Shown piece after piece: positions 38,173 through 63,459 of a stretch of 64,000 nt of DNA (its first letter is position 1; each line of letters opens with the position of its first letter). The notes under the pieces are model-generated. The model saw only the letters and a program-made list of their open reading frames with translations, did no database searches and had not been told where the DNA came from. Source of the DNA: a virus (lineage: Duplodnaviria > Caudoviricetes); IMG/VR virus record IMGVR_UViG_3300044259_000047, positions 1 through 64,000 of that record. One strand, given 5' to 3'. Position numbers and translations under genes: made by a program.

Positions 38173-38174
38173 GA

Positions 38175-41191: not shown

Positions 41192-41563
41192 TTAATTAAG
41201 AGGGTTGACATTGATAACATTTGTTTCTTCCCCTGTGTTAACTCTTACTTTAAAGGACAAGGAATATTGTCTGTTAACAAACGTTGAATTGAATTCTGTA
41301 ATCTCTTTAACACCATTTTCAGCTAAGATTTTTTGCTGAAAAATAAGATCTACTTTTTCTTTAGTAGTCTTAAAGCCAAGGATATCTTGGAAGTAGGGAA
41401 TCCCGTAAGAGGTATCTAAGAACCATTCTGAAAAGAAGGTATGTAGAAGAATAAATAACCGCTGCTGGACAATATGAACTAAAGGTTGTGTTGTATACTC
41501 TTGAGTTAAAGGTCCATTATGGAAAACCAAATCATTTGTTTCGTAATTCAGAAGTAAGTCCAC
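41192..41563 (-). CDS. baseplate wedge/sheath initiator (gp25-like)
   Basis: EWFLD..YGIPY motif. Confidence 0.8.
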   Translation of the reverse strand: MDLLLNYETNDLVFHNGPLTQEYTTQPLVHIVQQRLFILLHTFFSEWFLDTSYGIPYFQDILGFKTTKEKVDLIFQQKILAENGVKEITEFNSTFVNRQYSLSFKVRVNTGEETNVINVNPLN

Positions 41564-41572
41564 ATCATCTCC

Positions 41573-43188: not shown

Positions 43189-43191
43189 AGT

Positions 43192-43527
43192 TTAATCTTC
43201 TGTTTCCCAAACATAGTAAAACAAGTAATACTGGTCAATCTTATCTGGATAAGTCTTGTATGGTTCTGAAATAATTGTGCTTATTTCTTCCATCCAAAAC
43301 CAGCCAGACAGATCTGGTAAAGCATATTCCCTAAACATGGGGTAAGAAGGAACTAATGCTTCGCCTGTGATTAATGGGTTTCGTTCAGCGTCATAAAGAC
43401 TGAAAGTATATAACCCCATTCTTTCATTATATGTGAACTCTGGGATATATGAATTACCTTCCAGAGTAATCGAATAATCATAAAAGTTATCAGGATATAA
43501 GGGCAGACTAACATAATTTAAGGCCAT
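43192..43527 (-). CDS. baseplate plug/virion protein
   Basis: L.G..Y...F.YN.R motif, position. Confidence 0.7.
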   Translation of the reverse strand: MALNYVSLPLYPDNFYDYSITLEGNSYIPEFTYNERMGLYTFSLYDAERNPLITGEALVPSYPMFREYALPDLSGWFWMEEISTIISEPYKTYPDKIDQYYLFYYVWETED

Positions 43528-43528
43528 A

Positions 43529-44332
43529 TTATAACTCCGCTGCTACATCTGCCATTTTATCTTTATTAGGACCAGTCTCCCCAGCAGGTGGTGCCTGAAC
43601 ATCTTTTTTAGTGCTGTCTTGTTTACCTTTGTTCTGCTTTTCTGAGGACTTACTTTTAAGAGAACTCACCACATCTTTAGGGATTGTGGTTTTCTTTAGG
43701 TAAGCAAAGGTAACTTGTTCAAACGTGATATCACAGAATAAAGCATTTCCGGTGTTAGCATCTTCTCTGAATACTAGATTTGTGATAACTAATCGTGGGA
43801 TGATTCTTTTTAAAAACTGATTAGTATATTCGTATAATTCAACAAGCTGAATAAAGCTATCAAACTGGGCAGTCTTCTCATTGTATTTTACACCATTGAG
43901 AAGGTTAGTTAGAGCTTGACGAATCTGATCTGTTAAATCAGTCCTAGCAGTATCCATACTTACTTCTGGAGTTGTATCTGGTAGAAACTGACCGAGAGAG
44001 TCTGGAATAAACTTCTTAAGGATACTTTTATCGGTAGATTGTACAGATACTGGCGTTGGAGCTATTCTTGTGTTGTATGGAAAAGTTCCATTACCGTCAC
44101 TGATCAATCCTGTGTTTGTACTGATATCATCCGATGAGAAAACACCAGACAGAGTAAACACAGGATTTTGCTTAACGAAGTGATCCGTGATGGGAGAGCC
44201 GCCGTCTACAGGATGTTTACTGACTTGACCCGAGTAGTTCTGTGTGTAAACAGTTACAGCATCAAAAAACAACATACCAGAATAAGGATCGTTGTCAGAA
44301 GTTGTGTCTCCCCATTTAATAGCGAAAGTCAT
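43529..44332 (-). CDS. tail tube initiator/Dit-like baseplate protein
   Basis: HPV..G..ITDH motif after tape measure. Confidence 0.8.
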   Translation of the reverse strand: MTFAIKWGDTTSDNDPYSGMLFFDAVTVYTQNYSGQVSKHPVDGGSPITDHFVKQNPVFTLSGVFSSDDISTNTGLISDGNGTFPYNTRIAPTPVSVQSTDKSILKKFIPDSLGQFLPDTTPEVSMDTARTDLTDQIRQALTNLLNGVKYNEKTAQFDSFIQLVELYEYTNQFLKRIIPRLVITNLVFREDANTGNALFCDITFEQVTFAYLKKTTIPKDVVSSLKSKSSEKQNKGKQDSTKKDVQAPPAGETGPNKDKMADVAAEL

Positions 44333-44342
44333 CTTTTAATCC

Positions 44343-46319: not shown

Positions 46320-46331
46320 GAAAACACCTCT

Positions 46332-46547
46332 TTATTGTTTTGTATTTTTAGCTTTCTCTATTGCCTTTTCTTTGACTGCGTCGTAAGCTTCAACCATTTC
46401 ATACATATCTAGAAGGTCCTTATATGTATATTCAGTTTTAAATTTAGGGAGCATATCTAAACCACCCAACTCAGGATGGGTTACTACACTATAAATAAGC
46501 CAACTCTGGGAAAACCTATCAGTCAAGTCTTTTTCAAAGGCTGACAT
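46332..46547 (-). CDS. tail assembly chaperone, downstream (gpT-like) portion
   Basis: -1 frame relative to upstream chaperone and open back to about 46598. Confidence 0.7.
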   Translation of the reverse strand: MSAFEKDLTDRFSQSWLIYSVVTHPELGGLDMLPKFKTEYTYKDLLDMYEMVEAYDAVKEKAIEKAKNTKQ

Positions 46548-46567
46548 GTATTTCTGCGATTCAGGCT

Positions 46568-46903
46568 TTATTCTTCTGAATCGCTTTCCTGAAAATCGTC
46601 AGAGAAGTTATACTCCAACACAGCAGTAAAGAGGCGTTGAAGATGAGCAATCTTTCTGGCAAAGATCACATCAAAATTATTGTCATCGATAGCTGTACCA
46701 TCCTCTTGGCACACATACTTACCGACTGTTTTCTTAATAACAGCTAGGTCAACTTTTACTTTACCTTGCGCAGCTTCAACTTCACTTTGAAGATGTTTCT
46801 CCATGAAATCCAAAGCTTCAGTTGCACTCATCGCAGTTACTTTATATTTGATTCCATCCACATCAAGAACTTCTTGGGGAAGGAATATAGGTTTCTTAGC
46901 CAT
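46568..46903 (-). CDS. tail assembly chaperone (gpG-like)
   Basis: position between tube genes and tape measure; EYNF.D.F end. Confidence 0.75.
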   Translation of the reverse strand: MAKKPIFLPQEVLDVDGIKYKVTAMSATEALDFMEKHLQSEVEAAQGKVKVDLAVIKKTVGKYVCQEDGTAIDDNNFDVIFARKIAHLQRLFTAVLEYNFSDDFQESDSEE

Positions 46904-46915
46904 TTTATTTCCTAG

Positions 46916-47413
46916 TTAAAGAATGTTTGAAACAAAGTTAGTTGCACTATTCAAGGCGTTGTCGAATATACTAGTCACTGGTTTACTGTTACCACCAACT
47001 ACGAAAGTTTCAGTTGTTTGGCAATAAATCTCCCAAGATCTATATTCAGCAGATGCTGAGAATACAGTTTCAGGATAAGATCTAATATAAGCTTCGTTTG
47101 AAGTAAACAAAGATCTACCACTATTATCCTTGAGGGTCAATACGATTCTTCCAGTGCCTTGTTCAAGATCTAATTCGTGAATATAGGATAAGACATCATT
47201 AGAATCACTTGTCATCAGAATTGGAATCGTGATGATTGCAGAACTCTTTGTGTTTCTTGATCTTGTATCTTTACCTCTAATACCTTGAATAGTTTGGAAT
47301 CCTGCAACTGTCCTACTAATACTAATACTCTCCCATCCTGCAATAGGATATCCACCAACAATCAGCTTAACGTCAGTTGGTGAATAAGTCTGTACAGAAA
47401 ATCCATTAACCAT
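46916..47413 (-). CDS. tail tube-like structural protein
   Basis: TYSP..V paralog of tail tube. Confidence 0.75.
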   Translation of the reverse strand: MVNGFSVQTYSPTDVKLIVGGYPIAGWESISISRTVAGFQTIQGIRGKDTRSRNTKSSAIITIPILMTSDSNDVLSYIHELDLEQGTGRIVLTLKDNSGRSLFTSNEAYIRSYPETVFSASAEYRSWEIYCQTTETFVVGGNSKPVTSIFDNALNSATNFVSNIL

Positions 47414-47916
47414 TATAGAATTCCCTCAAGAGCAGGAAGAGCACCAGAAGCTATATTAATCAAGTCTTGGATAATTCCAGATTCTCCAGAATTACCGCCA
47501 ATATTGATTACAGCTTGTGATGAACGCAATACCCATGTCCTTGGTTCAAATCCGTTACTCTTCATTAAAGCAGGAACAGTTTCAATCCACGTGTTAGTGG
47601 AGAAGAATAAATCGCTGCCACTACCGTCTTTGATAAACAAAGGGAATTTGCCTTTTTGACTTATTTCATCTAATTGCCAGAATTTAGTAAGAACATCGTT
47701 TGATTGACTTCCACTATACAATGTGATATTGATTGTATAAGTCTGATCATTATGATAGATTCTTGAAACAACACCATCTGTACTTCTTACAGATGTAAAT
47801 GGCATTAGATCCTTTGTAATCTCAATAAAAGTTCCATCTACAAAGCCGTCAATCGGTAAGATTCCACCAATAAGGCAAACCACCTCTTCAGGAATATAGG
47901 TTGCAAGATTTGTCAT
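47413..47916 (-). CDS. tail tube-like structural protein
   Basis: TY.PEEV, GF.DGTFI paralog. Confidence 0.75.
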   Translation of the reverse strand: MTNLATYIPEEVVCLIGGILPIDGFVDGTFIEITKDLMPFTSVRSTDGVVSRIYHNDQTYTINITLYSGSQSNDVLTKFWQLDEISQKGKFPLFIKDGSGSDLFFSTNTWIETVPALMKSNGFEPRTWVLRSSQAVINIGGNSGESGIIQDLINIASGALPALEGIL

Positions 47917-47930
47917 TGTATATTCCTTTT

Positions 47931-47952
47931 AAAAGAGGGCTGTGAAGCCCTC
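47931..47952 (-). terminator. intrinsic terminator after tail tube
   Basis: GAGGGCT-4-AGCCCTC-TTTT. Confidence 0.8.
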
Positions 47953-47955
47953 ATA

Positions 47956-48486
47956 TTAACCGTTAATTCTCCAACGAGACGGCACTTCATAATCAAGCGC
48001 GGCAAGTGTAGAAACTGTTTCATCAGAAAGTTTAGCGTTACCGCCGTAGTGCGGGGTAAGACTAACAGCGCTAATTTGCCAATTGCGAGTGCCCATGGTA
48101 GTATCAAAACTAACGTCTGGAGTAGTAGCAACAAACGCTTGATTACTTGATGCTACAGTACGTCCGCTATTGTCTTTAATTGTTAGAGCAAAAACGTATG
48201 AGTCTGTAGCGTCCGCTTCGTCAAGAGATTGGATGCGTTGAAAAACATCATTACTTGCTGAATATTGAGCAAGAGTGATATCAATTGTTGAAGCTTTGTT
48301 ACGTCTCTTAGTACGACCAGCACTCAAGTCTGCACCTACATACAATTCACTTGCAGGGGTAATTCTTGAAATGTTAATAAACGTACCATCAGCAAATCCA
48401 GATACAACGTGTACTTGATCGGCAACAGAGATTACTACTTGAATTTCTTCTGGGCTGTATGTACCCAGTACTGAATCATCAGCCAT
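47956..48486 (-). CDS. tail tube protein
   Basis: follows sheath; TYSPEE, GFADGTFI. Confidence 0.85.
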   Translation of the reverse strand: MADDSVLGTYSPEEIQVVISVADQVHVVSGFADGTFINISRITPASELYVGADLSAGRTKRRNKASTIDITLAQYSASNDVFQRIQSLDEADATDSYVFALTIKDNSGRTVASSNQAFVATTPDVSFDTTMGTRNWQISAVSLTPHYGGNAKLSDETVSTLAALDYEVPSRWRING

Positions 48487-48512
48487 ATTATATACCTTTT
48501 GTTGACGTCAAA

Positions 48513-49805
48513 TTACACACTTAGATAGCCCTGGATTACCACCTTTCTGACACTGGCAGCGAACCTTGCACGGAATACAAAAGTGCCCGCAATACGCTGT
48601 GCTCTTTGGTTAGCAGGAATTGACAGGACATCAGGGGCAGTAACGCTCCATCCGGTATCAATCAGGCCATTGGCTTCAGCTTGAGCAAGTACAGAGCGAA
48701 TCTCACCCTCAATGATAGTCATACCCACGTTAGTCATTGGGATTTTGAGGCTATTAATCAAACGGAAATAGATGGCTTCTTGTAGACGAGCATAAAGCCA
48801 GTCTTCACCTACAACGAGGTCGATAGGCTGACCATCGAACATATTACCATTCATGAAAATATCTACACCACCTTTGGCGATGTAATAGTTCCAGTTCTTA
48901 TTCTTAAGATTGGTAATCTGTGTTGGACTAAGGGCGCTGCGAGTTGCACCTACACCACGCTTAAAGTCCCAATCATTAGAGCCTGGGGTTACTGCAAGTT
49001 GGCTACCTGCCCACACAGCTTCTGGATATTCGGTTGCAGCAGTTGCTGACCAAACACCAAAGGTGCGGCCCTCATTACGTGCCGAAAGAATTGCACCAAT
49101 GTCAGTAGTTGCGGTAGTAGGACCAGCAGAATCAGAGCTTGAAATGCCAAAGATCTTGCGTCGTGCTCTAATAGCCTCAGCCAATTCATCTTGTACAGCA
49201 GAGGTTTGATTTGGGGTGAACAAAGCATACCAAGTGTCGTTTTCTACCTCAACAGCAGCCAAGGCATCGGTCCACTCTTCGGCGGATGGAGTATCTACCT
49301 TAGTCAGGTTACTCGATACTGTGATGCTCCAAGGAGTTCCTACTACAGTCGGGGCTACCGTTAGCGTACCGGTGTTATCCGTTACTGTAATACCTGTAGG
49401 CGTACCTATAGCAGTGTCTAGGCCAGCCGTAATCTCAGCAGCAGTTGCAGTACCGTCTGAGGTGAAGGTATAAGGCGTGTCATTGATTGTTACTGTATAT
49501 ACTGTGTTATTAGCAACGACAGGAGTAAGCGTAACAGAGTCAATTTGCTTTCGACCTACAACAATTGAAGGGGGAACAGCACCCAATACAGTAGATTGAC
49601 CGAACAATTGTTCAGCCATCTCGTGTACAGGATCACCTTCGTTAAAATCTACTTCAACATCTGTGATGTTGTTATATGTACGAGTTCTTTCTGAGAAATT
49701 TGTAAACTCAGCCAAGATCAAAGGAATTTCAAAAGAGGCAGAAGAAACTGCAACTGATTCCCGTGTCAAGGTAATTTGAATAATATCTGAAAGGTCTTCA
49801 GCCAT
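48513..49805 (-). CDS. tail sheath protein (DUF3383-like)
   Basis: PGS..W.FK, DWL.ARL.E, KIP.T..G motifs. Confidence 0.9.
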   Translation of the reverse strand: MAEDLSDIIQITLTRESVAVSSASFEIPLILAEFTNFSERTRTYNNITDVEVDFNEGDPVHEMAEQLFGQSTVLGAVPPSIVVGRKQIDSVTLTPVVANNTVYTVTINDTPYTFTSDGTATAAEITAGLDTAIGTPTGITVTDNTGTLTVAPTVVGTPWSITVSSNLTKVDTPSAEEWTDALAAVEVENDTWYALFTPNQTSAVQDELAEAIRARRKIFGISSSDSAGPTTATTDIGAILSARNEGRTFGVWSATAATEYPEAVWAGSQLAVTPGSNDWDFKRGVGATRSALSPTQITNLKNKNWNYYIAKGGVDIFMNGNMFDGQPIDLVVGEDWLYARLQEAIYFRLINSLKIPMTNVGMTIIEGEIRSVLAQAEANGLIDTGWSVTAPDVLSIPANQRAQRIAGTFVFRARFAASVRKVVIQGYLSV

Positions 49806-49824
49806 TCTCTAGCTTCCTTTGTTA

Positions 49825-50382
49825 TTATGGAATTGGGACGTTTGGTGGAACAGTGAATGTTTGACTTGGGTCTTGTGTTTGGTCTTCAACAATAACAGTT
49901 TCCACGTAATCTACAGGTTGTTGTGTATTAACCACATAAGAGAAGATGAAATCTTGGTTAAAGTATTCAACCCATTGTGTATCTCGTTTCTGTGGTGCTC
50001 TTCTAAGATTAGATTTTCTCATATAACCAAGCCCCTCTTTCCTGAGAGCTTCCATTATAATCGGATTACCATTTAATCTTTGAGTAAAGCTTTGTGCCAT
50101 ATCTCCAGCAGTAGATCCACAGAAGCTAAATTGTACTGTAACTTCATAAGATGCTTGAACACTTACATTTAAAGACGCGTCAAGAAGGCCCGAGGTTTGT
50201 GATCTACCTGTTTGCTGTATTCCTAATATATTGATTACAACAAAAGGCGTTGAAGGCTCACTTCCTCCAGTGTGCGAGAAGAAGATTCCTTTATTTTGTT
50301 CTACGCTGGTTGGGAAGTATTCTATAAGAGCTTGACTTGCTGTTCTAAAAAGAGATTTCCTAACTGTACTATACGCTACCAT
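49825..50382 (-). CDS. tail terminator/neck protein
   Basis: position before sheath, size. Confidence 0.7.
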   Translation of the reverse strand: MVAYSTVRKSLFRTASQALIEYFPTSVEQNKGIFFSHTGGSEPSTPFVVINILGIQQTGRSQTSGLLDASLNVSVQASYEVTVQFSFCGSTAGDMAQSFTQRLNGNPIIMEALRKEGLGYMRKSNLRRAPQKRDTQWVEYFNQDFIFSYVVNTQQPVDYVETVIVEDQTQDPSQTFTVPPNVPIP

Positions 50383-50858
50383 CAGTCATCCCCTCTTTCT
50401 ACTTTAAAGTCTACAGATTCAAGCATCTTACCTGTGTCAATCAATGGGTCGTTGAAACCTTTTTCAGCAACAGTTCTTGCGCTGTTTGGTGGAGTATCCC
50501 AACCAATGATTTCGTTTTGTAATCCTTTAACAAGAACTGGACCCATCTTTGTGTATGCTTGTTTGAATGTAGATTTACCTTCTAAAATAGAAGTGATTGC
50601 ATTCTGGAACAAAGGGACGTACTCAGCAGTTCTAAGTCTTGGCAGGAAGCCAACGCGGATAAAGGGCCTTGGTGGATATTTCACAGGATCGCCTTCTTCC
50701 ATAAATCTGGCCACCGTAGCTACAGGTAAGTTATCATTTTCAGAACTATATCTAGCATCTTCAAAGAAGCCTATTTTTAAAGATTCTTGATTGGCTTGCA
50801 GAAGATTCTTCTTGACCTTTTCCCAACCAGATTTGTCTACTGTGATTTTAACTGACAT
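50382..50858 (-). CDS. neck/tail completion protein
   Basis: P.RPF, PPN...T...KG...PLIDTG motifs. Confidence 0.8.
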   Translation of the reverse strand: MSVKITVDKSGWEKVKKNLLQANQESLKIGFFEDARYSSENDNLPVATVARFMEEGDPVKYPPRPFIRVGFLPRLRTAEYVPLFQNAITSILEGKSTFKQAYTKMGPVLVKGLQNEIIGWDTPPNSARTVAEKGFNDPLIDTGKMLESVDFKVERGDD

Positions 50859-50868
50859 AAGACATTCC

Positions 50869-51237
50869 TTAGTTTGGGGTAAGTGGGATACGAGCGGCCT
50901 TAGCTTCCCAGTGATCACGTACCGACATTTGGTATCTTTGCGTCTTCATGACACGGTATCTCTCATCATTCCAGATAAATTCATCAGCAGCCCAACCACC
51001 AGAACCTTCTTTTAAAGTTCTCATCTCCGAACTACTAAATACCCATACCCATTGCTTTGTTCTGTCTGCTTCGGGCATTATCATATATTCATAGTCACGT
51101 AGTGGCTGAACATTAGCTAGAATATCTACTGTAACTTCTGCACCTTCAACCCAATCCCCTTCAACAAAAGAACCCGGAGACTGTCGATAAAGGGTTAATG
51201 GGGTTTTTCTAACAAGACTAAATTCAGCAATAGACAT
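50869..51237 (-). CDS. head closure protein
   Basis: G.WVEG, ANVQP, position. Confidence 0.75.
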   Translation of the reverse strand: MSIAEFSLVRKTPLTLYRQSPGSFVEGDWVEGAEVTVDILANVQPLRDYEYMIMPEADRTKQWVWVFSSSEMRTLKEGSGGWAADEFIWNDERYRVMKTQRYQMSVRDHWEAKAARIPLTPN

Positions 51238-51239
51238 AC

Positions 51240-51683
51240 TTAAAACCCTTCGTAGTAGTTTATCGCTTCATCATCAGTGCAGTTATCGTGATTATAGGGG
51301 CGTTTACCGTCTCCAAAACCTTGGTATATCTTAGCCTGATTGTTGTCGTTGTTTGCATCGTTCGCCTGCATATCTGACTTACTGATACCACCAGCATATG
51401 CAATTGCAGAAGGAACGTTAAAGTTAGGATCATTCAAAAACGCTTCAAGTGCCTTTCGATAAGCGTTAGCCCAGTCGTTCCATACTTCATAATTACCTGC
51501 CCGTTCGCGGGTTGGCCAACGTGCTAAATAGAACAGGATTGCTCTTGCTGCATCTAATGATGCTCGTCTTACATTACCTTCATATTTATCAAGAAAGTAT
51601 TGATAATCTGCATCTGTGAGAATTTCAGGATCCCCAAAATCGCCAACCGCTAATCTAATAGCTTCAATATCAGATAGTGCCAC
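51240..51683 (-). CDS. head-tail adaptor
   Basis: GGAGG RBS before GTG; IRL.VGD...L.D..Y.YFL, YAGGIS.SDM.AN. Confidence 0.8.
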   Translation of the reverse strand: MALSDIEAIRLAVGDFGDPEILTDADYQYFLDKYEGNVRRASLDAARAILFYLARWPTRERAGNYEVWNDWANAYRKALEAFLNDPNFNVPSAIAYAGGISKSDMQANDANNDNNQAKIYQGFGDGKRPYNHDNCTDDEAINYYEGF

Positions 51684-52659
51684 TGTATACCTCCATATAA
51701 ACTTTATATTTTCGTGGAAGTACCGAAGTCGCACCGCCATAGAGATTTTCTAAGATATGGGACGTGGGTTTTCTACTGCTTAAATTTACAGTATAGATTC
51801 CTTTACCATTTACTCTAACTGATGGGATATAGTCTGGATACACTTTCTGGCAGTAAGTTGAAAAATCCTCACACAGTTCCTTACTTCCGCAAATAGTTAT
51901 TCCATATCTGCCTTCACCCGACAATATATGCCCATCTCCTTCAAAAACACCTCGCCAAAAATGAGGACTATTTTTAAGAGAGTCAGGAACAACTTCTTTT
52001 AAGGATTTGTTTGGTTTTAATCCTAAATGTAAGAGTCTTTCTATTAGTTCAGGTGCCGTGAAGGTGTACGCACAGGTTTTGTAGATATTCCCGGTCCTTG
52101 TGTCCTTTCTATTCCTAATGTAGATGCTTGATGTATTTCCGATATACTCCCTAAGGCGCTCAAGGATAACTACATCTCTACAAGATAACTCAATACCAAC
52201 ACGATAAGTTTCGTTACTTGTCTTAGTTATATATCCATCAGTTAATAACCACCCATAAAAATAAGCAGCAAGTTCTGATTCCATATCTAAAAATGCTTTT
52301 TCATTATATTTAGAATAGTCTTCAACACTTCTTACTGATACATCTTTGGATCTTAAAATTCTGAGTATGGTATCTGGAGAGCAATTATACTCCTTGGATA
52401 ATTCATTAGAAGAGATACCAAGAAGATATTTAAAGCAGATGTCTTCAATTTGGACAGTATCAAACAAGAAACTGGTCGGTCTTTTAAATGAGTATCCAAG
52501 TTTCCTCATTCTAGCTGAAATTGTACTAGCTTTTATCTCTAAAAGTTCAGCTATCTTTTTTAAAGGTAATCCATCAACCTCATGAAGATTTCTTACTACA
52601 GTAGAGAAATCTTTGTCTGCGTTATATCTTACTTCATCAATAGGGGTGCTAATAGCCAT
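51670..52659 (-). CDS. free-standing LAGLIDADG homing endonuclease with N-terminal HTHs
   Basis: AYFYGWLLTDG and FWRGVFEGDG motifs. Confidence 0.88.
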   Translation of the reverse strand: MAISTPIDEVRYNADKDFSTVVRNLHEVDGLPLKKIAELLEIKASTISARMRKLGYSFKRPTSFLFDTVQIEDICFKYLLGISSNELSKEYNCSPDTILRILRSKDVSVRSVEDYSKYNEKAFLDMESELAAYFYGWLLTDGYITKTSNETYRVGIELSCRDVVILERLREYIGNTSSIYIRNRKDTRTGNIYKTCAYTFTAPELIERLLHLGLKPNKSLKEVVPDSLKNSPHFWRGVFEGDGHILSGEGRYGITICGSKELCEDFSTYCQKVYPDYIPSVRVNGKGIYTVNLSSRKPTSHILENLYGGATSVLPRKYKVYMEVYSGTI

Positions 52660-52703
52660 ATTCTCTCCTAAGAATAAAGGAGAGGAGCATAAGCCCCTCT
52701 ATA

Positions 52704-52916
52704 TTACGAACTTGCCATTAGTCCAGCATTTTTAAGTGCTGTGAGTAGGGCGTTAAATTCAGCTTCAGTTGGAGATTCACCGCCAGTTAGTTGAGGGAGA
52801 AATGCAGCTTTGCTAGCACCACCAGCACCTGCATTAACTTCATCAACAACACGATCTACAACATCGAATACATCACCCCAGCTACGTTCTTGTAGCGAAG
52901 TCTTATCAATAGCCAT
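52704..52916 (-). CDS. small head-associated protein
   Basis: EFNALL.ALK.AGLM head-fibre-like motif, after capsid. Confidence 0.65.
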   Translation of the reverse strand: MAIDKTSLQERSWGDVFDVVDRVVDEVNAGAGGASKAAFLPQLTGGESPTEAEFNALLTALKNAGLMASS

Positions 52917-52935
52917 TCTTCTTTCCTCTTATTAA

Positions 52936-52962
52936 GAAATAAAGGGAGGACTTTCACCTCCC
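52936..52962 (-). terminator. intrinsic terminator after capsid gene
   Basis: GGGAGG-7-CCTCCC followed by TTTATTT. Confidence 0.8.
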
Positions 52963-52978
52963 AATATCTAAGTCTTTA

Positions 52979-54019
52979 TTAGGTGCTGGAAGTCAGCTTA
53001 ACAAGAACTTGTGGCTGAGTTGCGAAGTACAGGGGAGAAGTCTCAACTTGCATTTCGTGGAACTCGTCTTTAGGATCGGTGAACTCATATGCAAACATTT
53101 CACGGCCTACACCATTGGCACCAGACAGTTTGTTTGATGGACCGAAGTAGCCACGGAACAGATCACGGACAACAGGTAGTACGTGGCCAGTATCAGTATC
53201 AACAGCAGCTTCAGTAGTGCCGTCAGGAAGTTTGAATACGTGGTCGTAAGTTACGAAAGTAACACCTTTATATTCAAACTGGTCTACAGAACCCCAAGCC
53301 ATGAATTGGTTGGTGGATTCGCGGTTGATGTCACGCTGAGAAGCGTAGTACAGATAAGCTTGACGAATCTGAGGATGGCTTACCAGCTTGTCGAAGAAGC
53401 TACCGTCAACAACAACACGGATACCACCAATAACGCCGCCAGTTTTCAGGTTGGTTTGCAGATAACGCTTAAGTTCGGAGATTTTAGCGTTAACGTCAGT
53501 GGTAGCTGTACCAAGATCAAAATCAATGGTGTGCTGAGTAATACCAAACTCAGTAAACATGTTGGCAAGAACAACACCGTCAGGAGTTGCACAGATACCT
53601 TTAGCTGCTTGCAGCTTCATGTACTCAAGAGTCTGTTCCACTTGGGCACGCATATCCCCCAGTTTTTGTACGCGGACATTGGCCAGAGTCTCTTCTGAAT
53701 CTGGAGTGCCCGGCATACGCCAGCCTTGAATATCTTCAGGAGTGATATAATCACTGTGCTTGAAGTAGCCAAGGGGCAGAGAGAAGGTTTCAACCTTACG
53801 GTCATTACCTTTGGTAGTTTCACGACCACGGCGGCTTACTTGAGGAAGCAGAGTGGTGTCATTCATACTCTTGTCAAAAACAACAGCAGTTTGAGAAATA
53901 CCTTGAGTGCGGAACAGATTCATGCCACCAATCAGGCCAGCAGTGTTATCAAGGTTGTTGATTTCGTCGGTCCAATCTACAAGTTGGAAACCGTTACTTA
54001 GAGAGCGAGTAGTTGCCAT
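52979..54019 (-). CDS. major capsid protein (lambda gpE-like HK97 fold)
   Basis: 346 aa; DIQG.R..G, T.EY....A.KG, ETSPL; strongly biased codons. Confidence 0.92.
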   Translation of the reverse strand: MATTRSLSNGFQLVDWTDEINNLDNTAGLIGGMNLFRTQGISQTAVVFDKSMNDTTLLPQVSRRGRETTKGNDRKVETFSLPLGYFKHSDYITPEDIQGWRMPGTPDSEETLANVRVQKLGDMRAQVEQTLEYMKLQAAKGICATPDGVVLANMFTEFGITQHTIDFDLGTATTDVNAKISELKRYLQTNLKTGGVIGGIRVVVDGSFFDKLVSHPQIRQAYLYYASQRDINRESTNQFMAWGSVDQFEYKGVTFVTYDHVFKLPDGTTEAAVDTDTGHVLPVVRDLFRGYFGPSNKLSGANGVGREMFAYEFTDPKDEFHEMQVETSPLYFATQPQVLVKLTSST

Positions 54020-54040
54020 GTTCTATGTTATCCTTACGGG

Positions 54041-54469
54041 TTAAGCGAATTGTTCAGGCTGATCGATTACTTTGATACCAGCAGCTTCCATTTGTGCGTA
54101 GACAGCAGCAAGTTCAGCAGGCTGATCAACAGAAGCACCGAATACCAGATTTGCCTTACCAACACCAGCAGGACCACGGAACAGAACAACAACGTTAGTG
54201 TCTGTGGTTGCAGCGATGGTTTGTTTGTTGTCACCAACAGGTGAACCAATGTAAATACCCGCAAAGTTCTGGCTACCATCAGAAGCAGAAGCTTCTAGAA
54301 TTTTGTATTTACCAGTTGCAGTAACTTTACCCAGAACAGTACCGATTACATAGTTTTTAATAGCTGCTTCGTTTGCAACCACTACATCACGGCAGTGACC
54401 ATATTCTGGATGATCTTCATATTGCAGTACAGCGCCAAGGCGAGTAGAGCGAGTGTCTAGTTTAGCCAT
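54041..54469 (-). CDS. head decoration protein
   Basis: GTVLGKVTA.GKY..DGSQ motif. Confidence 0.85.
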   Translation of the reverse strand: MAKLDTRSTRLGAVLQYEDHPEYGHCRDVVVANEAAIKNYVIGTVLGKVTATGKYKILEASASDGSQNFAGIYIGSPVGDNKQTIAATTDTNVVVLFRGPAGVGKANLVFGASVDQPAELAAVYAQMEAAGIKVIDQPEQFA

Positions 54470-54488
54470 GTTATCTTATAACTCCTGA

Positions 54489-55433
54489 TTATTGCTTTTT
54501 GGTTTTTTGTTTTTCGATTAGTTTAGCAACAAGGTCAAGACCGGCTTTCTCTTGTTCTACTACCTTACCTTCACCATCAATACCTTTTTCTTTGAAAAGG
54601 TCTGACTCTTGCTCCACTGCTGATTTCTTTTCAAGAGATTTTACAACAACAGCGAAAGCTTCCTCTGGAAGTTCACCAACAGCTTTGAACATCTCTTCAA
54701 CTTCTTCTGAAGGGACATGCTTAGCCAGAGCTTCCTTACGAACAGCAGCAACAGCTTCTTTCTGTGCTTTTTCAATATCTGCCAGTTTATCTAGAGCTTT
54801 TTGAAGCTCAGTTTCTTTTTCTTGAAGTTGTGACTTAAGAATGTCTTCTGCTGCTTTCACAGCCTTTTGGATTTCTTCTTGCAAAGCAAGTACCTCTTTC
54901 TCTTTAGATTTAAACATGTCAACTAGATGTTGGCGTGTAGTTGCATTGTCAAGGGCTTTGGCTACAAGTGTATAAACTCCCTCTTCAAGCTTATCTTCTG
55001 CATCTTCTGACAGAAGCATGTTACCAGTAGCAGGTACATAAGAAAGTACGCTGGTTACGGGATTGGCAAGTTCCCCTAAAGAAACTTCACCATTGACAAC
55101 GGAGTAATCTGTTGACCACAAACCTTTGTCATTACAGAAGATAACAACGTTGTCGTTGAAGTCTTCCACATAAAGCCAATCTTTTTCATCACCATACTTT
55201 TCTTTAACCGCGTTTTGCAGTAAAGTGCGTACTTGAGAATAGAAAGCAGCTTTATTTACATCAGAAAGCCCTAGCGTTTCTAAAGCTTTCTTAATTTCTT
55301 CGGTCATCTCTACATCGCTTTTCATCAACAAAGAGACGTGACGATTATTAGCACTGTAGCCTTGTGCTTGGTGACAGAGGGCTAAATGAGGTGCCAACTT
55401 GTCATCTTCTGACGATTTAATTACAAGAGGCAT
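54489..55433 (-). CDS. capsid scaffolding/assembly protein
   Basis: C-terminal Glu/Lys coiled coil, position before decoration and capsid. Confidence 0.75.
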   Translation of the reverse strand: MPLVIKSSEDDKLAPHLALCHQAQGYSANNRHVSLLMKSDVEMTEEIKKALETLGLSDVNKAAFYSQVRTLLQNAVKEKYGDEKDWLYVEDFNDNVVIFCNDKGLWSTDYSVVNGEVSLGELANPVTSVLSYVPATGNMLLSEDAEDKLEEGVYTLVAKALDNATTRQHLVDMFKSKEKEVLALQEEIQKAVKAAEDILKSQLQEKETELQKALDKLADIEKAQKEAVAAVRKEALAKHVPSEEVEEMFKAVGELPEEAFAVVVKSLEKKSAVEQESDLFKEKGIDGEGKVVEQEKAGLDLVAKLIEKQKTKKQ

Positions 55434-56083
55434 TATTTATCTCCCTCAAATGTTACATTAGTGATCTCACCAGTTTCTTGGTTGATGCGTCCTTTAGCTC
55501 CGATACTAACTCCCGAAACAACACCTTGCTTCTTAAGATTCCAAAGCGTTTCATCGTTGTATTTGATTTTAGCTACCCAAGTACCAGCTTTAATAATCTC
55601 ACCAGTTTGAACTACTTGAACATCAAGTTCTTTTTGAATCCAAGTAGACTCAATAGTAAATGCTTCAGTTTCTTTAAGATGGAACAGATTAGCCTTTACT
55701 ACACCAGCTTCAAGATTTTTATTAAAGCTTTCAGCAGCCTTCTCAATGGTTTTATCGCTCATCCACTCTCCATGAGCATCCTTTACAAAAGGCTCATAGA
55801 TAACTTCGTAGCTAACCATTTTTTCATCAAGAATTTCTGGCTTTTGTTCAGACTCTGTTGCACCGAAAGCTTTCTCAATCATTTCAGAAACACTTTCAAG
55901 AAGGCTTTTTTTAACCTTCTCTTTAGCATTCTTAGCGGCAGCAAGACCTGTAGCAATAGCTCGCCCTTCGTCACCTTCGTATTCTGAAAGTGCAGCGTTT
56001 GCAGCAGCAACAAAAACATCTCTTGCATGACCTTTAAGCTTTTCTGCTGCTGGAGGCAGTTTGTCACTAGCTTTCCAAGGCAT
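55433..56083 (-). CDS. XkdF-like prohead protease with N-terminal ChaB-like domain
   Basis: YEP..DAHGEW, NLFH, GTW, G.SIG; N-terminal MPW..LP...A..VF..A.N. Confidence 0.75.
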   Translation of the reverse strand: MPWKASDKLPPAAEKLKGHARDVFVAAANAALSEYEGDEGRAIATGLAAAKNAKEKVKKSLLESVSEMIEKAFGATESEQKPEILDEKMVSYEVIYEPFVKDAHGEWMSDKTIEKAAESFNKNLEAGVVKANLFHLKETEAFTIESTWIQKELDVQVVQTGEIIKAGTWVAKIKYNDETLWNLKKQGVVSGVSIGAKGRINQETGEITNVTFEGDK

Positions 56084-56839
56084 TATGTATTTTCTCCGTT
56101 AGCGGTTGAACCATCGCCAGAACTACCATCTGCGCTTCCTGTACCTGATGGTATTCCAGAAGTCATACCTTCTCCGGCATTAGATGTAAAGCCTGTTAAT
56201 GTTTCTTGGTAATTTACAAGTTCTTCAGTAGAGTCAATTCTGTCTGGTAATCCAACCCACTCAGCAATCTTATTAAGATTTTGCGGAGTTTTCTGGATAA
56301 GTCCTTGACTACCTGCACGTTGTAGATACTTGGAAATAACATCCAAATCTTCTTCTTTAACTTGAGCAAACTCAAACTTTGGAAGACGTTCTAACGACCA
56401 GCCGTTGAGTAAAAATAGCTGAGGGATAAGGTCATTATTCAGAACATCTTGAATCTCTTTTAGTCGGGATTCAACAGCCATTTGCATGATGCTTGATTTA
56501 CTGTCAGCTAGATTGTAAGAACCGCCTTTACTGTTACCCATTTGCAGTAAATCAGCAAACAGCGCTTGAAGAATTTTGTTGTCCCATCGAGTAACGGCTA
56601 CGTTAGTATCATATTGAGAAGCATTAGGTGGACCTACAAGCTTCCAGTCAAATAGTGGTTTACCTTGATCGTCGTAAAGGCTCGGGAAGACAACACAGGC
56701 TTGTTCATTACTTTGCAGGTTGCGTCCAATACGTTTTACTTCTTCGTAAACAGCCTTCTCTTCTGCTGTAGCGTCTAGAGACATGAACTTAGCAGGAAGT
56801 CTGAAATCAGGAATACCACCCAAACCACGAGTAATTCCG
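56083..56839 (-). CDS. portal protein, exon 2
   Basis: joins exon 1 as EAV-GITRGLGGIP; GS..LADSK, LN.DLIPQL...NGW. Confidence 0.9.
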
Positions 56840-57846
56840 CATTTGTGTTCAGGGAGGGTCGTTAATCCTCCCCCGCTTTATTCAAGCTGCTGCATGTTTC
56901 CATGCAGATCAGACTATATCACCATCTCTTTGAGATGCTTACCATTTCCACCTACTTAGGTGTACTCCCTTGCGGGATAGTCGTTGCACTTTCCACTTCA
57001 ATTATCTGTTTTAGAATTTAAATGGTTTAGAAATTTCTTTGTAAGAATTCCTATTCTTAATGTCGTACACCAAAGCTTTAGTGACCTCGATGTTTTCAGA
57101 CATTTCAAATATTTGCTTTACTGTAAATCCTTCCTCAAGCCTATTGCAAACCCAGAGTATAGTATTTACCGAAACACGCTTCTGCCTAACTTTTGTAAGT
57201 TTATAATCAGAAGAAATATGTTTCCAAGCTGTTCCATTTCTTACTTGTGAAACAAGAGATTTACTGACTTTCAATCTCTCACACACATCTTTATTTCTAA
57301 ATCCTTGTTCCAAAAGACTGCAAATTTCCCTAACCAGAACTTCTTCATTTACATTGTTATAATGACTCTCACCAATATAACTAAGTAAACCGCTCTCACT
57401 AGCGTGTCTTGCATTCTCTTTATGGTCAACCCATTCTAAGTTTTCACATTGATTATTTACTTTATTTCCGTCAATGTGATTGACGAGGGGCTTACCTTCG
57501 GGGTTTGGAACAAAACTTTCAGCAACCAGTCTATGAACACTCTTTTTAACAACAGCCCCGTCCTTGTATCTGATGGTGACTCTGTAGTATCCGCTGTTCG
57601 ACAACTCTTGCTTTAATTCTTTTCTAGGTCCAAATACGTTTCCTTTGTTGTCAACGCTGTAACCTTTACTATTCTCGATAACTTTCTTCATATTAGCCTC
57701 CTACTGGGATTCGGAGATAACTGAAGTGGCTTAGCTCAGGATTGCCCTCGTCTTTACGTTAGGGGTTTCCCTGAATTAGATAAGTTTTGGTAGTTTAAAC
57801 TACCGAGGATTTCATGTCAAATCACTTCAACATGCCGCTGAAATTA
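56840..57846 (-). mobile_element. self-splicing group I intron (IA2-like, 1007 nt) in portal gene
   Basis: P1 GCCGU/GCGGC with U-G at splice site; P AAUUCAGGGAA, Q AAUCCUGAGC, R GCAACGACUAU, S GAUAUAGUCU; terminal G; P10 UAAUUUC/GGAAUUA. Confidence 0.93.
57011..57691 (-). CDS. intron-encoded HNH homing endonuclease
   Basis: VHRLVAESF.PNPE.KP.VNHIDGNK.NN...NLEWV; AGGAGG RBS; enclosed by 15-bp stem. Confidence 0.92.
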   Translation of the reverse strand: MKKVIENSKGYSVDNKGNVFGPRKELKQELSNSGYYRVTIRYKDGAVVKKSVHRLVAESFVPNPEGKPLVNHIDGNKVNNQCENLEWVDHKENARHASESGLLSYIGESHYNNVNEEVLVREICSLLEQGFRNKDVCERLKVSKSLVSQVRNGTAWKHISSDYKLTKVRQKRVSVNTILWVCNRLEEGFTVKQIFEMSENIEVTKALVYDIKNRNSYKEISKPFKF

Positions 57847-58568
57847 ACGGCCTCAGATTCTTCGATTTGCTTTCTGTATTTCCAAGCAGTATAAACTTTA
57901 GCTAGTGGACTTCGACCTTGCGGATTATCTCGTGTAACGTCAGTTCTGAACAGAAGGAATTTCTTACGAGGGATTTCAATTTCACCAGCAAAGTCTTGAG
58001 AATTAGCAAGTCTAAATCCATCATTAAGAAGGGATGTATCTTGAACTACAGCAAGCAAATCTCTACCGTCGTCAGAGAATTTCCATTCTTTGATTGTGGT
58101 TTGTGATCGTACAGGAAGTTTCTTAATACCTACAAGACCATCATTGTATTTAGAACCATTCACCCTATATCTGCGACGATACACCTTCTCATTAACACAG
58201 TACCCGTATGTAAACATGCTGGTAACTTCTTTAATGAAGGAGAACCAACTGTGTTCCATATCGTCTTTGCATTGCTCTACAAACTTAGTGTATTTCTTCT
58301 CTTCGTCTGTAGCATCAATTGGTGGAAGTACACTCCAATCAACCCTACTAATCATCATCTCAAACAAAGAAAGAGCTGATGCAATAGTTGCATCCTGAGA
58401 CATCTCTTGGTAAGTTCTGTTGGCTCTAGGGTAAACAAGATCCTTTCTAGCTTCTTCAAGAATAATGCCATCAAACTCTTTCAAACCCGGATAACCAGTC
58501 TCTCCAAGCTTTACGCGGGGAATGGCAGAGTCTCCGGTCTGTAGGTCTAGGCTTTCGTTATCTGCCAT
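57847..58568 (-). CDS. portal protein, exon 1
   Basis: follows terminase; YG....EKVY, P.R.Q.T, IPR.KFLLFR, NP.GRSPL. Confidence 0.9.
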
Positions 58569-58593
58569 TTAATTTCCTTTATAAACTTTGATT

Positions 58594-60075
58594 TTACACT
58601 CTAAAGGGGTTAGACTGTGACATAGATGGGAATGAGACGGTAGGAATTTGAAATTTTTGAACAAGGTGTAGGTACGCGAGCGACATGCAGTCACAAACAT
58701 CGTCGTGTCCTGCCTCACCGCTTTTCCTTGTACCATCAAAGTTTTCTAATTCCCGTAAGAAGAATTCGTTATCACATGAAATCTTATTCCAGTAGTCATG
58801 ACCACAATTATCTACAATATGAACAATCCCTAATTCGGCAGATGCTGCAAAAGGTCTAAAGGCATCTAGTTTACCCTGAGAAGCCCTTTGGGTTTTTGCA
58901 ATATAACCTGCTTCAATAATCTGCTTAGCAAGCAATTTAATAGATGCTTTTGCTGCTGGGTTAGGATCTTCACCAAGAACAATTTCAGTTTTAAAACCAT
59001 CTCGTCTAGCGTGGTCTAAAATATGGTCTAGCCACTGTCCGAATGTGATTCGTGTACGTGTTACCTCAATAACAACGTATTCGCCAGAAGATTTCAACCT
59101 ACCCATTTTTACACTAGCAAAGTAGTCAGGGCTTCTGTTACCATCGTGAGGTAGTGTACCAGCTACGTCATAAACCCTCACAAGCTTATCGAATTCTAAG
59201 TCGAGAGGCGCCTTATCTAGTGTTGGGCAAGTTGATCTACTAAAGTATGAACTATTTTCTGGCTTCGCAAACCAGTTACCATGAAGCAATCGTTCACGTT
59301 CAAGACGAGGAAGAGCCTCCAAGTTTTGCTTGTACTGTGGATTTGATTTCATCAACGGGGGGTTATCGTCAATAGTACCAAATAAACCTTGAAAGCTAAT
59401 TGGTGCTTTATCATATCCGTACTTTTCTTGAAGTTCTTCAGCAGTATCGCCCCAACAGAGTTCACCATTAATACGAAGTAGATAACGAATCTTACCGTTC
59501 TTTTCAGGATCAGGACGACCTTCTAAAGGATGACCAAGCGGATACAAATACCACATGGCATACTTTAGAACCCAACTTGCATTGTCGGGGTTACAGGACC
59601 ACCACATTGAATGTGTATTTTTTGCATTAGAACGAAGACGCGACCAAAGCCACCAGAGTTGTTCTTCATTATCTGCATGAGTTACCTCATCGTAGAAAAT
59701 GTTTGAAATCTGAATACCTTGATACTTCTTAGCCGCTGTGTCATTCTCATAATGTGAGAATGAGATTTCACTCCCGCTGGAAAAAACTAGCTTCTGATCC
59801 TTCAATTTCACTTTAAGTTTAGGGTCGTACTGAGTATAAAGAGCAACAGCTTCCCAAAATAAACCACCAGAAGCCATAATGGCGCTGGAGTTCTTACGAA
59901 TACAATATGCTTTATAATGAGGATCTTCTACAAAGCGAAGATGTCTCATTAGACCAACATACGATTTAGATGATCCGGCAGCGCCGCCTACTAGGATAAT
60001 TTGTGCGTCTGAATTGAGGTACTCTTGTTGAAAAGTAGACGCCGGTCCGATAGGAGCCTGCTGTTCACTCATCAC
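58594..60075 (-). CDS. terL: terminase large subunit
   Basis: Walker A GGAAGSSKS, Walker B IFYDE, SCNP coupling motif, HDD.CD nuclease. Confidence 0.95.
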   Translation of the reverse strand: MMSEQQAPIGPASTFQQEYLNSDAQIILVGGAAGSSKSYVGLMRHLRFVEDPHYKAYCIRKNSSAIMASGGLFWEAVALYTQYDPKLKVKLKDQKLVFSSGSEISFSHYENDTAAKKYQGIQISNIFYDEVTHADNEEQLWWLWSRLRSNAKNTHSMWWSCNPDNASWVLKYAMWYLYPLGHPLEGRPDPEKNGKIRYLLRINGELCWGDTAEELQEKYGYDKAPISFQGLFGTIDDNPPLMKSNPQYKQNLEALPRLERERLLHGNWFAKPENSSYFSRSTCPTLDKAPLDLEFDKLVRVYDVAGTLPHDGNRSPDYFASVKMGRLKSSGEYVVIEVTRTRITFGQWLDHILDHARRDGFKTEIVLGEDPNPAAKASIKLLAKQIIEAGYIAKTQRASQGKLDAFRPFAASAELGIVHIVDNCGHDYWNKISCDNEFFLRELENFDGTRKSGEAGHDDVCDCMSLAYLHLVQKFQIPTVSFPSMSQSNPFRV

Positions 60076-61645: not shown

Positions 61646-61723
61646 TGGTGCCGGATGCGACGGATCGAACGCGCAACCTCCTGAGTACAAAACAGGGATT
61701 CTAACCTATTGAACTAATCCGGC
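61646..61723 (-). tRNA. tRNA-Thr(TGT)
   Basis: GCCGGAT/ATCCGGC acceptor, encoded CCA, anticodon loop TTTGTAC, TTCGA T-loop; irregular T and anticodon stems. Confidence 0.8.
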
Positions 61724-61931: not shown

Positions 61932-62321
61932 TTAATCTTCTTTATTCCCATGAAGCATAGTTAAGCTGAAGCGTCTGACTGGAACTTCTGGTGTTGAATT
62001 ATCTTCTTCAGGAGTGTCTTCTGAATTCTCTTCCAAAGACTTCTTAATTGCATTTTTACGTTGCTCTTCACCAACTGCTGCTGTTGTCGTTGAAACAATA
62101 CGTTCAATAACCCACTTAGAGCTAGAAAGCTGGTCCTTTGGAACATCTTCACCTTTGATAGATTTTTCAATATTCTCAAGTGAGGCATCTTCAAGCTGTG
62201 AAAGCTTTTTAAGAAGCTTACGCAATTCACTACGTCTACCACGAGGGCCTTTTATACCCTTGCGGTTGATGTTGTCAGGATTAGAACTGAGGCCCTGTTT
62301 GTTCCCAACTGGTGCTGGCAT
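61932..62321 (-). CDS. putative terminase small subunit
   Basis: MPAP.GN...NP.NINRKG N-terminus, acidic C-terminus, upstream of terL. Confidence 0.55.
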   Translation of the reverse strand: MPAPVGNKQGLSSNPDNINRKGIKGPRGRRSELRKLLKKLSQLEDASLENIEKSIKGEDVPKDQLSSSKWVIERIVSTTTAAVGEEQRKNAIKKSLEENSEDTPEEDNSTPEVPVRRFSLTMLHGNKED

Positions 62322-62353: not shown

Positions 62354-62546
62354 ATCTTTCTGAAACCTACTAATCAAAAATAGGCTTTAGAAAGATGCAG
62401 CTATCAACAGGAGAATGAATTAATAGCTGCACATAGCTCTACAACATGGAGGAGAAAGACACATTGTAGAGAGATAGCTTCACGTATGAGAGGAGAAACA
62501 AAACGTGAAGCATACACATCGTTACTTGCTTTATTTCGCTGATGTG
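62354..62546 (-). ncRNA. tandem hairpin RNA with anti-Shine-Dalgarno (UUCUCCU) loops
   Basis: five consecutive hairpins; three central ones have 8-9 bp perfect stems and UUCUCCU loops. Confidence 0.7.
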
Positions 62547-62550
62547 GATT

Positions 62551-62622
62551 CATTCCCGGCAAGGGTCGAACTTGCAACCAGAATCTTAGAAGGATTCTGC
62601 TCTACCATTGAGCTACGAGAAT
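62551..62622 (-). tRNA. tRNA-Arg(TCT)
   Basis: ATTCTCG/CGGGAAT acceptor, GCTC/GAGC D stem, GAATC-CTTCTAA-GATTC, GTTCGA; CCA not encoded. Confidence 0.9.
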
Positions 62623-62631
62623 ATTCTTTTA

Positions 62632-63192
62632 TTATGTAAGATAGACATCGATCACGGTTCTGATACTTCCGCGTCCGACTCCGAGTTTTCTGGCTAATCC
62701 TAGAGACCCGAACTCTCTGCTACCCTTAACGTAATTATTTTTAATATAATTAACTTGATCTTCTGTCAACCTGAATTGTGAATTCTCAAGACCATACTTA
62801 GGATTTACCACCTGCAATCCATTCAAAACTGCATGCTGTGCATTTTGCTTCGGTGTGCACCATTCTAGATTAGAAACATGATTATTTGTTTTATTACAAT
62901 CTTTGTGGTTTACCAAAACAACGCCATATACGTGTTTCGAGCACTCGTCTATCATTTCTTGAGAAGGTGGTTCCAGAAATGCTTCAGCTACCATTCTGTG
63001 AACTTTGAATAGTTTTGCCTTTCCATCCCTTCCACCAATCCTAGTTGCAAAGGAAGGATAACCGCCTGTTTTAGAGTTGATAAGTTTTATTGGTCTATTT
63101 CTAGTCTTAGACCAAACGTTACCAAAATTACTAACCATAAAGCGGTCTTCGTACCCAACAACATCTTTCCAAATTTCAATTTCTTCTTGCAT
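62632..63192 (-). CDS. NUMOD4-HNH homing endonuclease in tRNA region
   Basis: EIWKDVVGYE.R..VSN.G, VHRMVAEAF, VNHKD.NK.NN.VSNLEWCT. Confidence 0.92.
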   Translation of the reverse strand: MQEEIEIWKDVVGYEDRFMVSNFGNVWSKTRNRPIKLINSKTGGYPSFATRIGGRDGKAKLFKVHRMVAEAFLEPPSQEMIDECSKHVYGVVLVNHKDCNKTNNHVSNLEWCTPKQNAQHAVLNGLQVVNPKYGLENSQFRLTEDQVNYIKNNYVKGSREFGSLGLARKLGVGRGSIRTVIDVYLT

Positions 63193-63333: not shown

Positions 63334-63406
63334 TTGGCCCAAGCAGGTTCGAACTGCTACTGTAGGAATTATGAGTTCCCCGTACTTCCAATTATACGAT
63401 AGGCCA
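63334..63406 (-). tRNA. tRNA with CAT anticodon (elongator Met or Ile2)
   Basis: TGGCCTA/TGGGCCA acceptor, GGGAA-CTCATAA-TTCCT, AGCAG-TTCGAAC-CTGCT; lacks initiator three G-C pairs; CCA not encoded. Confidence 0.85.
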
Positions 63407-63430: not shown

Positions 63431-63459
63431 ATTGTAACATTATTACATCACAATTGCAA
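63431..63459 (-). promoter_or_regulatory. sigma70-like promoter for tRNA/ncRNA transcript
   Basis: TTGCAA-17-TACAAT with TG extension. Confidence 0.7.

Follow-up and report, generated by a model that had tools for sequence, protein, structure and literature searches.

Positions 62354 to 62546 of the DNA analysed here, a stretch of 64,000 nucleotides (the window), carry a row of hairpins close behind a tRNA gene, and the question raised by this locus is which of its strands is made into RNA and what the loops of that RNA would bind. The window covers the first 64 kb of a phage record that is complete, at 86,059 bases, and has terminal repeats. Replication genes lie on the plus strand, and the head, contractile-tail and lysis genes on the minus strand, running from 60075 to 33632. 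The terminase shares 53% identity with its counterpart in Pseudomonas phage phiPMW, and the capsid protein 52% with that of vB_PsaM_M1 (M1). In a comparison of capsid and terminase genes across G000–G034, the relatives that bear the hairpin array proved to have strongly mosaic head genes, the capsid identity to the window being 85–87% in three of them and 24–31% in the rest. The portal gene is in two pieces (57822–58568 and 56083–56823, minus strand, both phrog_113) with an HNH gene (57011–57691) between them, which suggests an intron or an inserted homing element; the Rfam scan found no intron there at its cut-off. In the order in which the minus strand is read, the features of the locus are:

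63431..63459, minus strand: candidate promoter of sigma70 type (9/12, extended -10), ahead of the tRNA cluster
63334..63406, minus strand: tRNA-Met (CAT)
62632..63192, minus strand: HNH endonuclease gene inside the tRNA cluster (phrog_59, E 1e-41)
62550..62623, minus strand: tRNA-Arg (TCT), its acceptor stem not directly followed by CCA; adjoins the candidate RNA at the 5' end of the latter
62515..62546, minus strand: P1, hairpin at the 5' end; its large, A-rich loop lacks the anti-SD motif, and it hardly varies in eight close relatives
62477..62511, minus strand: H1, hairpin with a 17-nt loop containing UCUCCU
62437..62471, minus strand: H2, 12-bp hairpin with loop UCUUUCUCCUC; four compensatory pairs, 100% of cells paired
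62397..62430, minus strand: H3, 12-bp hairpin with loop UCAUUCUCCU; four compensatory pairs, 100% of cells paired
62354..62396, minus strand: closing stem, long and A/U-rich with a U-rich tail; its base is conserved in the family, and it is often branched in distant members
61932..62321, minus strand: P0001, 129 amino acids, small-terminase-like by position and by distant kinship to DUF5681 proteins
61646..61723, minus strand: tRNA-Thr (TGT)
33632..60075, minus strand: late module, reaching from terminase to lysis genes and poor in GGAGA start sites

P0001 matches gp123 of phiPMW (E 9.5e-7), which is a DUF5681 protein, and gives no Pfam match itself. Its gene starts 33 bases beyond the closing stem, with AAGGU and not GGAG as its Shine-Dalgarno (SD) sequence. 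No relative of P0001 was found in bacterial genomes, so that it gives no hint of the host. The promoter scan yielded seven sigma70-like sites where 6.5 are expected by chance; since this count is not above chance, the candidate at 63431..63459 is favoured by its position alone.

The three consecutive hairpins H1, H2 and H3 have UCUCCU in their loops on the minus strand (AGGAGA on the plus strand, at 62491, 62450 and 62409), with the positions and loops described in an earlier note on this DNA. That note placed the array directly 3' of tRNA-Arg; the array is present, with the motif-less fourth hairpin (62515–62546) sitting in between. When the region 62340–62549 is folded, the minus strand reaches -66.7 kcal/mol (z -7.63) and the plus strand -56.3 kcal/mol (z -4.71), in both cases with none of 200 shuffles as good. 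In the predicted minus-strand structure the UCUCCU cores have an unpaired probability of at least 0.95, and two of the stems are extended by four pairs through G-U pairing on this strand only, as had been noticed before. Among 39 arrays, 32 fold more stably on the strand of the tRNAs and late genes (the tRNA/late strand), where 238 of 2729 pairs are G-U, compared to 125 of 2647 on the opposite strand. From the sequence we infer that the expressed strand is the minus, or tRNA/late, strand. Two coding readings of the region were rejected: an ORF at 62404–62577 starts within tRNA-Arg, and the one- and two-base indels found there among relatives leave no reading frame at the array; on the plus strand, the "SD" in H3 is followed by ATG-AAT-TAA.

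Of the 42 loci fetched via the P0001 family, 37 hold a homologous array on the tRNA/late strand; three of the other five end at a contig edge, one (G029) has an array that was missed by the hairpin scanner and one showed no array on that strand. Fetching by terminase, P0001 or motif gave 72 loci, 17 of them with an array on this strand, two being duplicates. As the scanner gives such false negatives, the "no array" calls were rechecked with a covariance model (R1) built from eight close relatives. In these eight, 97.4% of the cells are paired and nine pairs are changed on both sides, which was equalled by none of 500 shuffles (slid controls give 27–46%); the test took its structure from the window, which favours that structure. 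P1 never varies and is therefore without covariation support. In 15 distant members, compensatory changes are present in 16 of the 22 consensus pairs. Out of 50 other loci, R1 detects 20 at E<=0.01, most of them over practically its full length, and it recovers only part of the distant members; when it was run against 60 control sources the window alone was matched, and with filters off nothing convincing appeared. In 67 hairpins picked by CUCC, this motif is preceded by U in 59 and followed by U in 61; across these hairpins, the loop core is fixed and the loop flanks drift. The loops of the distant members are longer, with tandem C/U runs. In contigs of three public runs the array is retained with 12–18 changes, the adjacent gene no longer aligning in two of them. 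The public runs listed as carrying the array include none of RNA, and the four that were compared are contigs, probably or possibly of DNA, which bear on presence only and not on expression.

A motif scan of IMG/VR returned 120 stretches, nine of which pass a filter of two loops plus closing stem. The Rfam scan of the window gave only two tRNAs at cut-off, blastn of the array region against 50,697 phage records had the tRNA as its sole match, and a literature search at the level of titles and abstract openings produced no description of the present RNA. None of the contig ids or motifs tried is present in the consulted tables of Fremin et al. 2023 (PMC10690425), although the array RNA may be among the 10,006 unnamed candidates of that study. 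Judged by its sequence, the array is a real, conserved phage RNA element, and apparently an uncatalogued one.

Several relatives contain reduced variants or other structured blocks. A single anti-SD hairpin is present in G011 (21165–21300, plus strand) and L031 (1950–2090, plus strand), in both cases with two further hairpins and a closing stem of the same type behind it, and a possible one-loop variant is located at about 40860–40890 (L205:2860–2890) in the cultured phage M1. In more distant relatives (L043:8770–8810, L037:9200–9245 and phiPMW 43895–43920), lone hairpins whose C/U-rich loops resemble an anti-SD sequence either follow a tRNA or closely precede the small-terminase-like gene. 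Upstream of the terminase of G010, a structured non-coding stretch of about 590 nt (67923–68511, minus strand) contains UCUCCU four times in a different fold, and R1 gave no convincing recognition of it. Between tRNA and array, L005 (6000–6200) and L002 (3585–3770) have a further block of about 185 nt that is structured, conserved and non-coding, and that is absent from the window.

The surroundings of the array give indications of how the ends of the RNA would be formed. Release by tRNA processing, as proposed earlier, is supported in part: the end of a called tRNA is at most 12 nt away in only 9 of 39 arrays, the identity of the tRNA varies, and 14 of the 39 are without an upstream tRNA in the locus. 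Three relatives have a sigma70-like sequence just upstream of the array, and 26 of the 39 arrays begin with UUCACC, mostly after AGU or UGU. At the other end, the hairpin at 62354–62396 and its U-rich tract had been thought to close the RNA. The stem is indeed conserved, but the terminator scan made no call there, and the tail, U-rich here, is A/U-mixed in most relatives; the stem is likely a 3' boundary or processing element. In most relatives the next gene starts only 9–54 bases behind the closing stem, for which reason the 3' end would more likely arise by processing or partial termination than by a full stop.

What the loops could bind is indicated by the start sites of the genome itself. 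GGAGA is found before 4 of 41 genes of the late region, the four including one endonuclease and one methyltransferase-like gene, and before 58 of 136 others (p 6e-5); for the late module at 33632..60075 the counts are 4 of 36 and 58 of 141, "late" and "other" being positional labels and the start sites coming from our own SD-weighted gene caller. The earlier observation that early genes have AGGAGA-type and structural genes other SD contexts was borne out as a contrast between classes: in the 21 complete array genomes GGAGA precedes 65 of 662 late genes and 1030 of 2886 others, and is less frequent before late genes in 21 of 21. With only genes of at least 150 amino acids counted, the figures are 39/462 for late and 201/613 for other genes, which removes the worry that an SD-weighted caller favours short genes with strong SDs. 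The 4-mer GGAG is present at 227 of 662 late and 1656 of 2886 other start sites, about a third of the late ones thus still holding it, and the base after AGGA is G in 39% of late genes versus 69% of the others. In this genome A follows GGAG in 62 of 97 cases, so that the loop core is the exact complement of the commonest SD. For 105 of the 177 start sites here, 11 late ones among them, the duplex with a loop has an energy of -9 kcal/mol or better, and the 28 best duplexes between loops and start sites are all with non-late genes. The gene right after the array has GGAG in only 1 of 38 cases. Late start sites also pair more weakly with the plain ribosomal anti-SD motif in five of the six array genomes tested. 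Inside the genes of the 21 array genomes, AGGAG is below the expectation from synonymous shuffles, with observed/expected ratios of 0.35 for late and 0.60 for other genes; in the six myoviruses without a full array these ratios are 0.53 and 0.76.

Comparison with other phages gives a mixed picture. Seven sheath-less relatives without the array have no contrast (53/182 late, 354/1076 other), and in G011, which is nested in the array clade and has one-loop remnants only, it is not significant (10/32 versus 54/138), G011 thus counting as one supporting loss for a link between RNA and contrast. In M1 and G010, just outside the array clade, the same GGAGA test gives no significant contrast either. 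The six myoviruses without a full array, however, have a weaker bias in the same direction in six of six (31/188 versus 238/774), the contrast in G012 (2/32 versus 46/150) equals that of the array genomes in strength, and a comparison of the base after AGGA reaches nominal significance in PAK_P3 and M1 (p 0.023 and 0.043). The late-gene bias may therefore predate the RNA or have another cause; if it is older, the RNA may later have been tuned to it. In a tree of 17 proteins the 21 array genomes, from uncultured bacterial viruses with genomes of about 86 kb, fall in one clade, and since they are not independent the 21-genome contrast is close to a single observation.

The reading that we prefer, to which we assign a probability of roughly 55%, is that an RNA of about 195 nt is made from the minus strand of 62354–62549 and that its redundant anti-SD loops would repress GGAG-type mRNAs as a class, with the late genes largely escaping. 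Among the other readings the best surviving, though we think it unlikely, is that this minus-strand RNA does not repress mRNAs and that its C/U-rich loops are decoys binding a protein or an RNA, such as a host pyrimidine-tract binding protein, a defence nuclease or host sRNAs with GGA loops. The long tandem C/U loops of the distant members would suit a binding surface as well as they suit pairing, and the late-gene bias occurs also without a full array, both of which a decoy accommodates. A decoy would not call for a fixed core that exactly complements the commonest SD of the genome, nor for a cotranscribed next gene that avoids GGAG (1/38). Genes for Hfq or CsrA were found in none of the five genomes searched, which excludes phage-encoded partners of those two kinds only.

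Lower still do we rate the idea that the array acts in cis, as a processing scaffold, a stabiliser or a downstream-gene leader of the tRNA/late transcript without targets in trans. The array is always found on the tRNA/late strand, it often has a tRNA on one side and the small-terminase-like gene on the other, and its long closing stem is conserved, all of which a cis element would predict. However, neither neighbour is fixed, the upstream tRNA varying or being absent and the downstream gene varying too; the downstream SD almost never offers GGAG to the loops; and a stabiliser does not explain why an unpaired UCUCCU is conserved in every hairpin.

The earlier note had proposed a multi-guide antisense RNA, in which the flanks of each loop are tuned to a few chosen phage genes. 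We now regard this as improbable. The perfect matches that were named all exist, at 20945 and 7644–7656 (13 nt), 21953 and 26690 (10 nt) and 22619 (12 nt):

20945..20957, plus strand: 13-nt complement of the H1 loop, before ORF 20958; found also at 7644–7656 (minus strand) and before gene 75657, outside the window
21953..21962, plus strand: 10-nt complement of the H2 loop, before ORF 21964; at chance level (p 0.72)
22619..22630, plus strand: 12-nt complement of H3, before ORF 22632; p 0.086 against shuffled flanks

The match before gene 75657 is the third of 13 nt, and another 10-nt match is located before gene 74929, also outside the window. In the 12-nt match at 22619, which is real, two of the nucleotides belong to the stem and not to the loop, and the gene that follows, formerly labelled DsbA/GapR-like, belongs to phrog_7029, of unknown function, and has only a sub-threshold Pfam match. 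The 26690 site is within ORF 26506–27123 (nucleotide-kinase family), just before an in-frame GTG; the strong AGGAGA and the GTG at 26690–26703 (plus strand) may mark an internal or the true start of the nucleotide-kinase domain.

In favour of guides, duplex energy puts the perfect matches of 10–13 nt at ranks 5, 7, 17 and 19 among the 177 start sites, matches of at least 9 nt occur at a slightly larger share of start sites at home than in foreign genomes (+0.0035, p 0.038), and in G001 and G006, where the loop flanks differ, H3 matches the 22632 orthologue over 9 nt. But the matches, while better than a naive shuffle of the window, do not beat controls that already hold the SD core. Shuffling the loop flanks gives p values of 0.12, 0.72 and 0.086 for the three loops. 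When 391 pseudo-guides from AGGAGA start sites of ten phages without a full array are applied to this genome, 71%, 17% and 8% of them match 10, 12 and 13 nt, respectively, and three pseudo-guides together reach the observed match total in 8.9% of draws. If every loop were a guide of its own for selected genes, matches should also be longer at home than abroad; the best match in the own genome minus that in foreign genomes is -0.01 nt (p 0.65, 23 hairpins) or +0.23 nt (p 0.20, 57 hairpins from 20 genomes). The stems vary around a conserved loop core, as had been expected; the target start sites, for the most part, do not follow the loops, a match of at least 10 nt being kept at 3 of 45 orthologous start sites of six target genes (20958, 21964, 22632, 7644, 74929 and 75657, in genomes with listed loops, some lists being one hairpin short). 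Loop type and the genome-wide share of GGAGAG are correlated with a rho of 0.36 (p 0.11, n=20). The H1 13-mer matches start sites in four of six other array genomes, some of which have a different H1 of their own, and is a recurrent start-site word of the phage group and not a proven specific target. The word AGGAGAAACAA, present at 20945, 7644 and G000:75645, is found at three to four start sites in G000, G001, G002 and G006 and at six in the array-less G016, and is apparently an initiation context favoured by the phage group.

The other alternative put forward earlier, a plus-strand CsrA/RsmA sponge, is barely credible: the plus strand folds well too, with GGA in three loops, but folding and the G-U pairs favour the minus strand, the neighbouring genes and tRNAs are all on the minus strand, and the loops, of 10–17 nt or longer, are unlike the short GGA loops of CsrB and RsmZ.

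Class-wide repression by redundant anti-SD loops has a bacterial precedent. The cuckoo/ar14 RNAs of Alphaproteobacteria (alpha-r14; NfeR1, CcsR1–4; RF02344) are described as two to four adjacent hairpins with variable stems and an anti-SD motif in each loop (PMC4615179). NfeR1 is reported to repress a large set of targets via three redundant anti-SD loops (bioRxiv 10.1101/2025.11.14.688489), and RNase E to release the CcsR RNAs from a longer transcript, the cleavage site of CcsR1 being GUUUCC (PMC8034643). The phage array is likewise made up of adjacent hairpins with variable stems, the UUCACC at its start resembles the CcsR1 cleavage site GUUUCC as given in PMC8034643, and the ar14 model aligns over its full length to 62393–62518 (minus strand). 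There are also differences: the phage motif is UCUCCU and that of the cuckoo RNAs CCUCCUCCC, which is absent from the three loops here; the RF02344 score is 31.8, below the 58.8-bit cut-off; the phage element has extra 5' and 3' stems; and the alphaproteobacterial locus is often beside a DUF1127 gene, while the neighbours here are the phage tRNA-Arg, the HNH gene and P0001. A whole-genome ar14 search gave no match here, compared to matches in 9 of 14 control genomes. By analogy, the phage element would be cuckoo-like and work like the cuckoo/ar14 RNAs, but it is not a member of that family.

Among phages, the RegB protein of T4 inactivates early mRNAs as a class at the GGAG of their SD sequences, which eases the move to later stages (PMC9409239). 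The start sites here, assigned to classes by position, are similarly GGAG-rich in non-late and GGAG-poor in late genes. RegB, however, is a protein nuclease, whereas the effector here is a candidate RNA, and a search for RegB (PF10715) gave no match in this genome. In Firmicutes, C-rich single-stranded motifs of LhrC, RsaE and RNAIII pair with ribosome-binding sites; those RNAs are chromosomal and differ in architecture, and none of the three was matched in the Rfam scan. In PAK_P3, sRNA2 is located between tRNAs upstream of the terminase, and sRNA1 and sRNA2 rise late in infection, 91- and 12-fold, their functions being given as unknown (PMC4933390). Like these two and, by description, the T4 band C and D RNAs, the array RNA would be a small RNA of virulent phages. 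An identity of sRNA1 or sRNA2 with the array RNA was considered and rejected: neither has an anti-SD hairpin array, and R1 finds nothing in PAK_P3. The sRNA2 sequence (L283:42344–42477) contains a hairpin resembling a tRNA T-arm, and may be a tRNA-like molecule or a remnant of one.

For repression of GGAG-type messages as a class, the following course of events can be proposed. The RNA would be part of the tRNA-cluster transcript, which may start from the sigma70-like site (63459–63431), and would be released at its 5' end by host nucleases and bounded at its 3' end by the closing stem. By analogy with the PAK_P3 small RNAs of the equivalent region, it would accumulate late as infection proceeds. 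Its three UCUCCU loops are predicted to pair redundantly with GGAG-type SDs and so block loading of the 30S subunit, as for NfeR1, the targets being most of the non-structural phage mRNAs and probably host mRNAs too. In the loops a U replaces the C of the ribosome, and would pair with AGGAGA and, by wobble, with AGGAGG. Late genes would largely escape, since their start sites are mostly AGGAA, AGGAU or AGGU. A more far-reaching form of this proposal, which we hold only tentatively and consider somewhat doubtful, is that the RNA mimics the anti-SD tail of 16S rRNA as a developmental switch that silences all GGAG-type phage and host messages, while the late SDs, shifted by one base from AGGAG to AGGAA or AGGAU, still serve the ribosome but escape the RNA.

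A function is known for few RNAs of virulent phages, and those of tRNA clusters, such as the T4 C and D RNAs and PAK_P3 sRNA2, are still unexplained (PMC4933390). The array family offers a readable active site and a sharp prediction, namely that one SD base decides who is silenced. New here are the rejection of specific guides, the class test in 21 genomes with its controls and the one-loop variants, including one in a cultured phage; the exclusion of gene-specific guides shifts the direction that experiments should take. If the preferred reading is true, the array would also be a compact class-selective repressor for synthetic biology. For the phages themselves, it would account for their two classes of ribosome-binding site, and would give them a means, made of RNA alone, to switch translation from early to late genes and to shut off the host, much as an RNA version of the T4 protein RegB.
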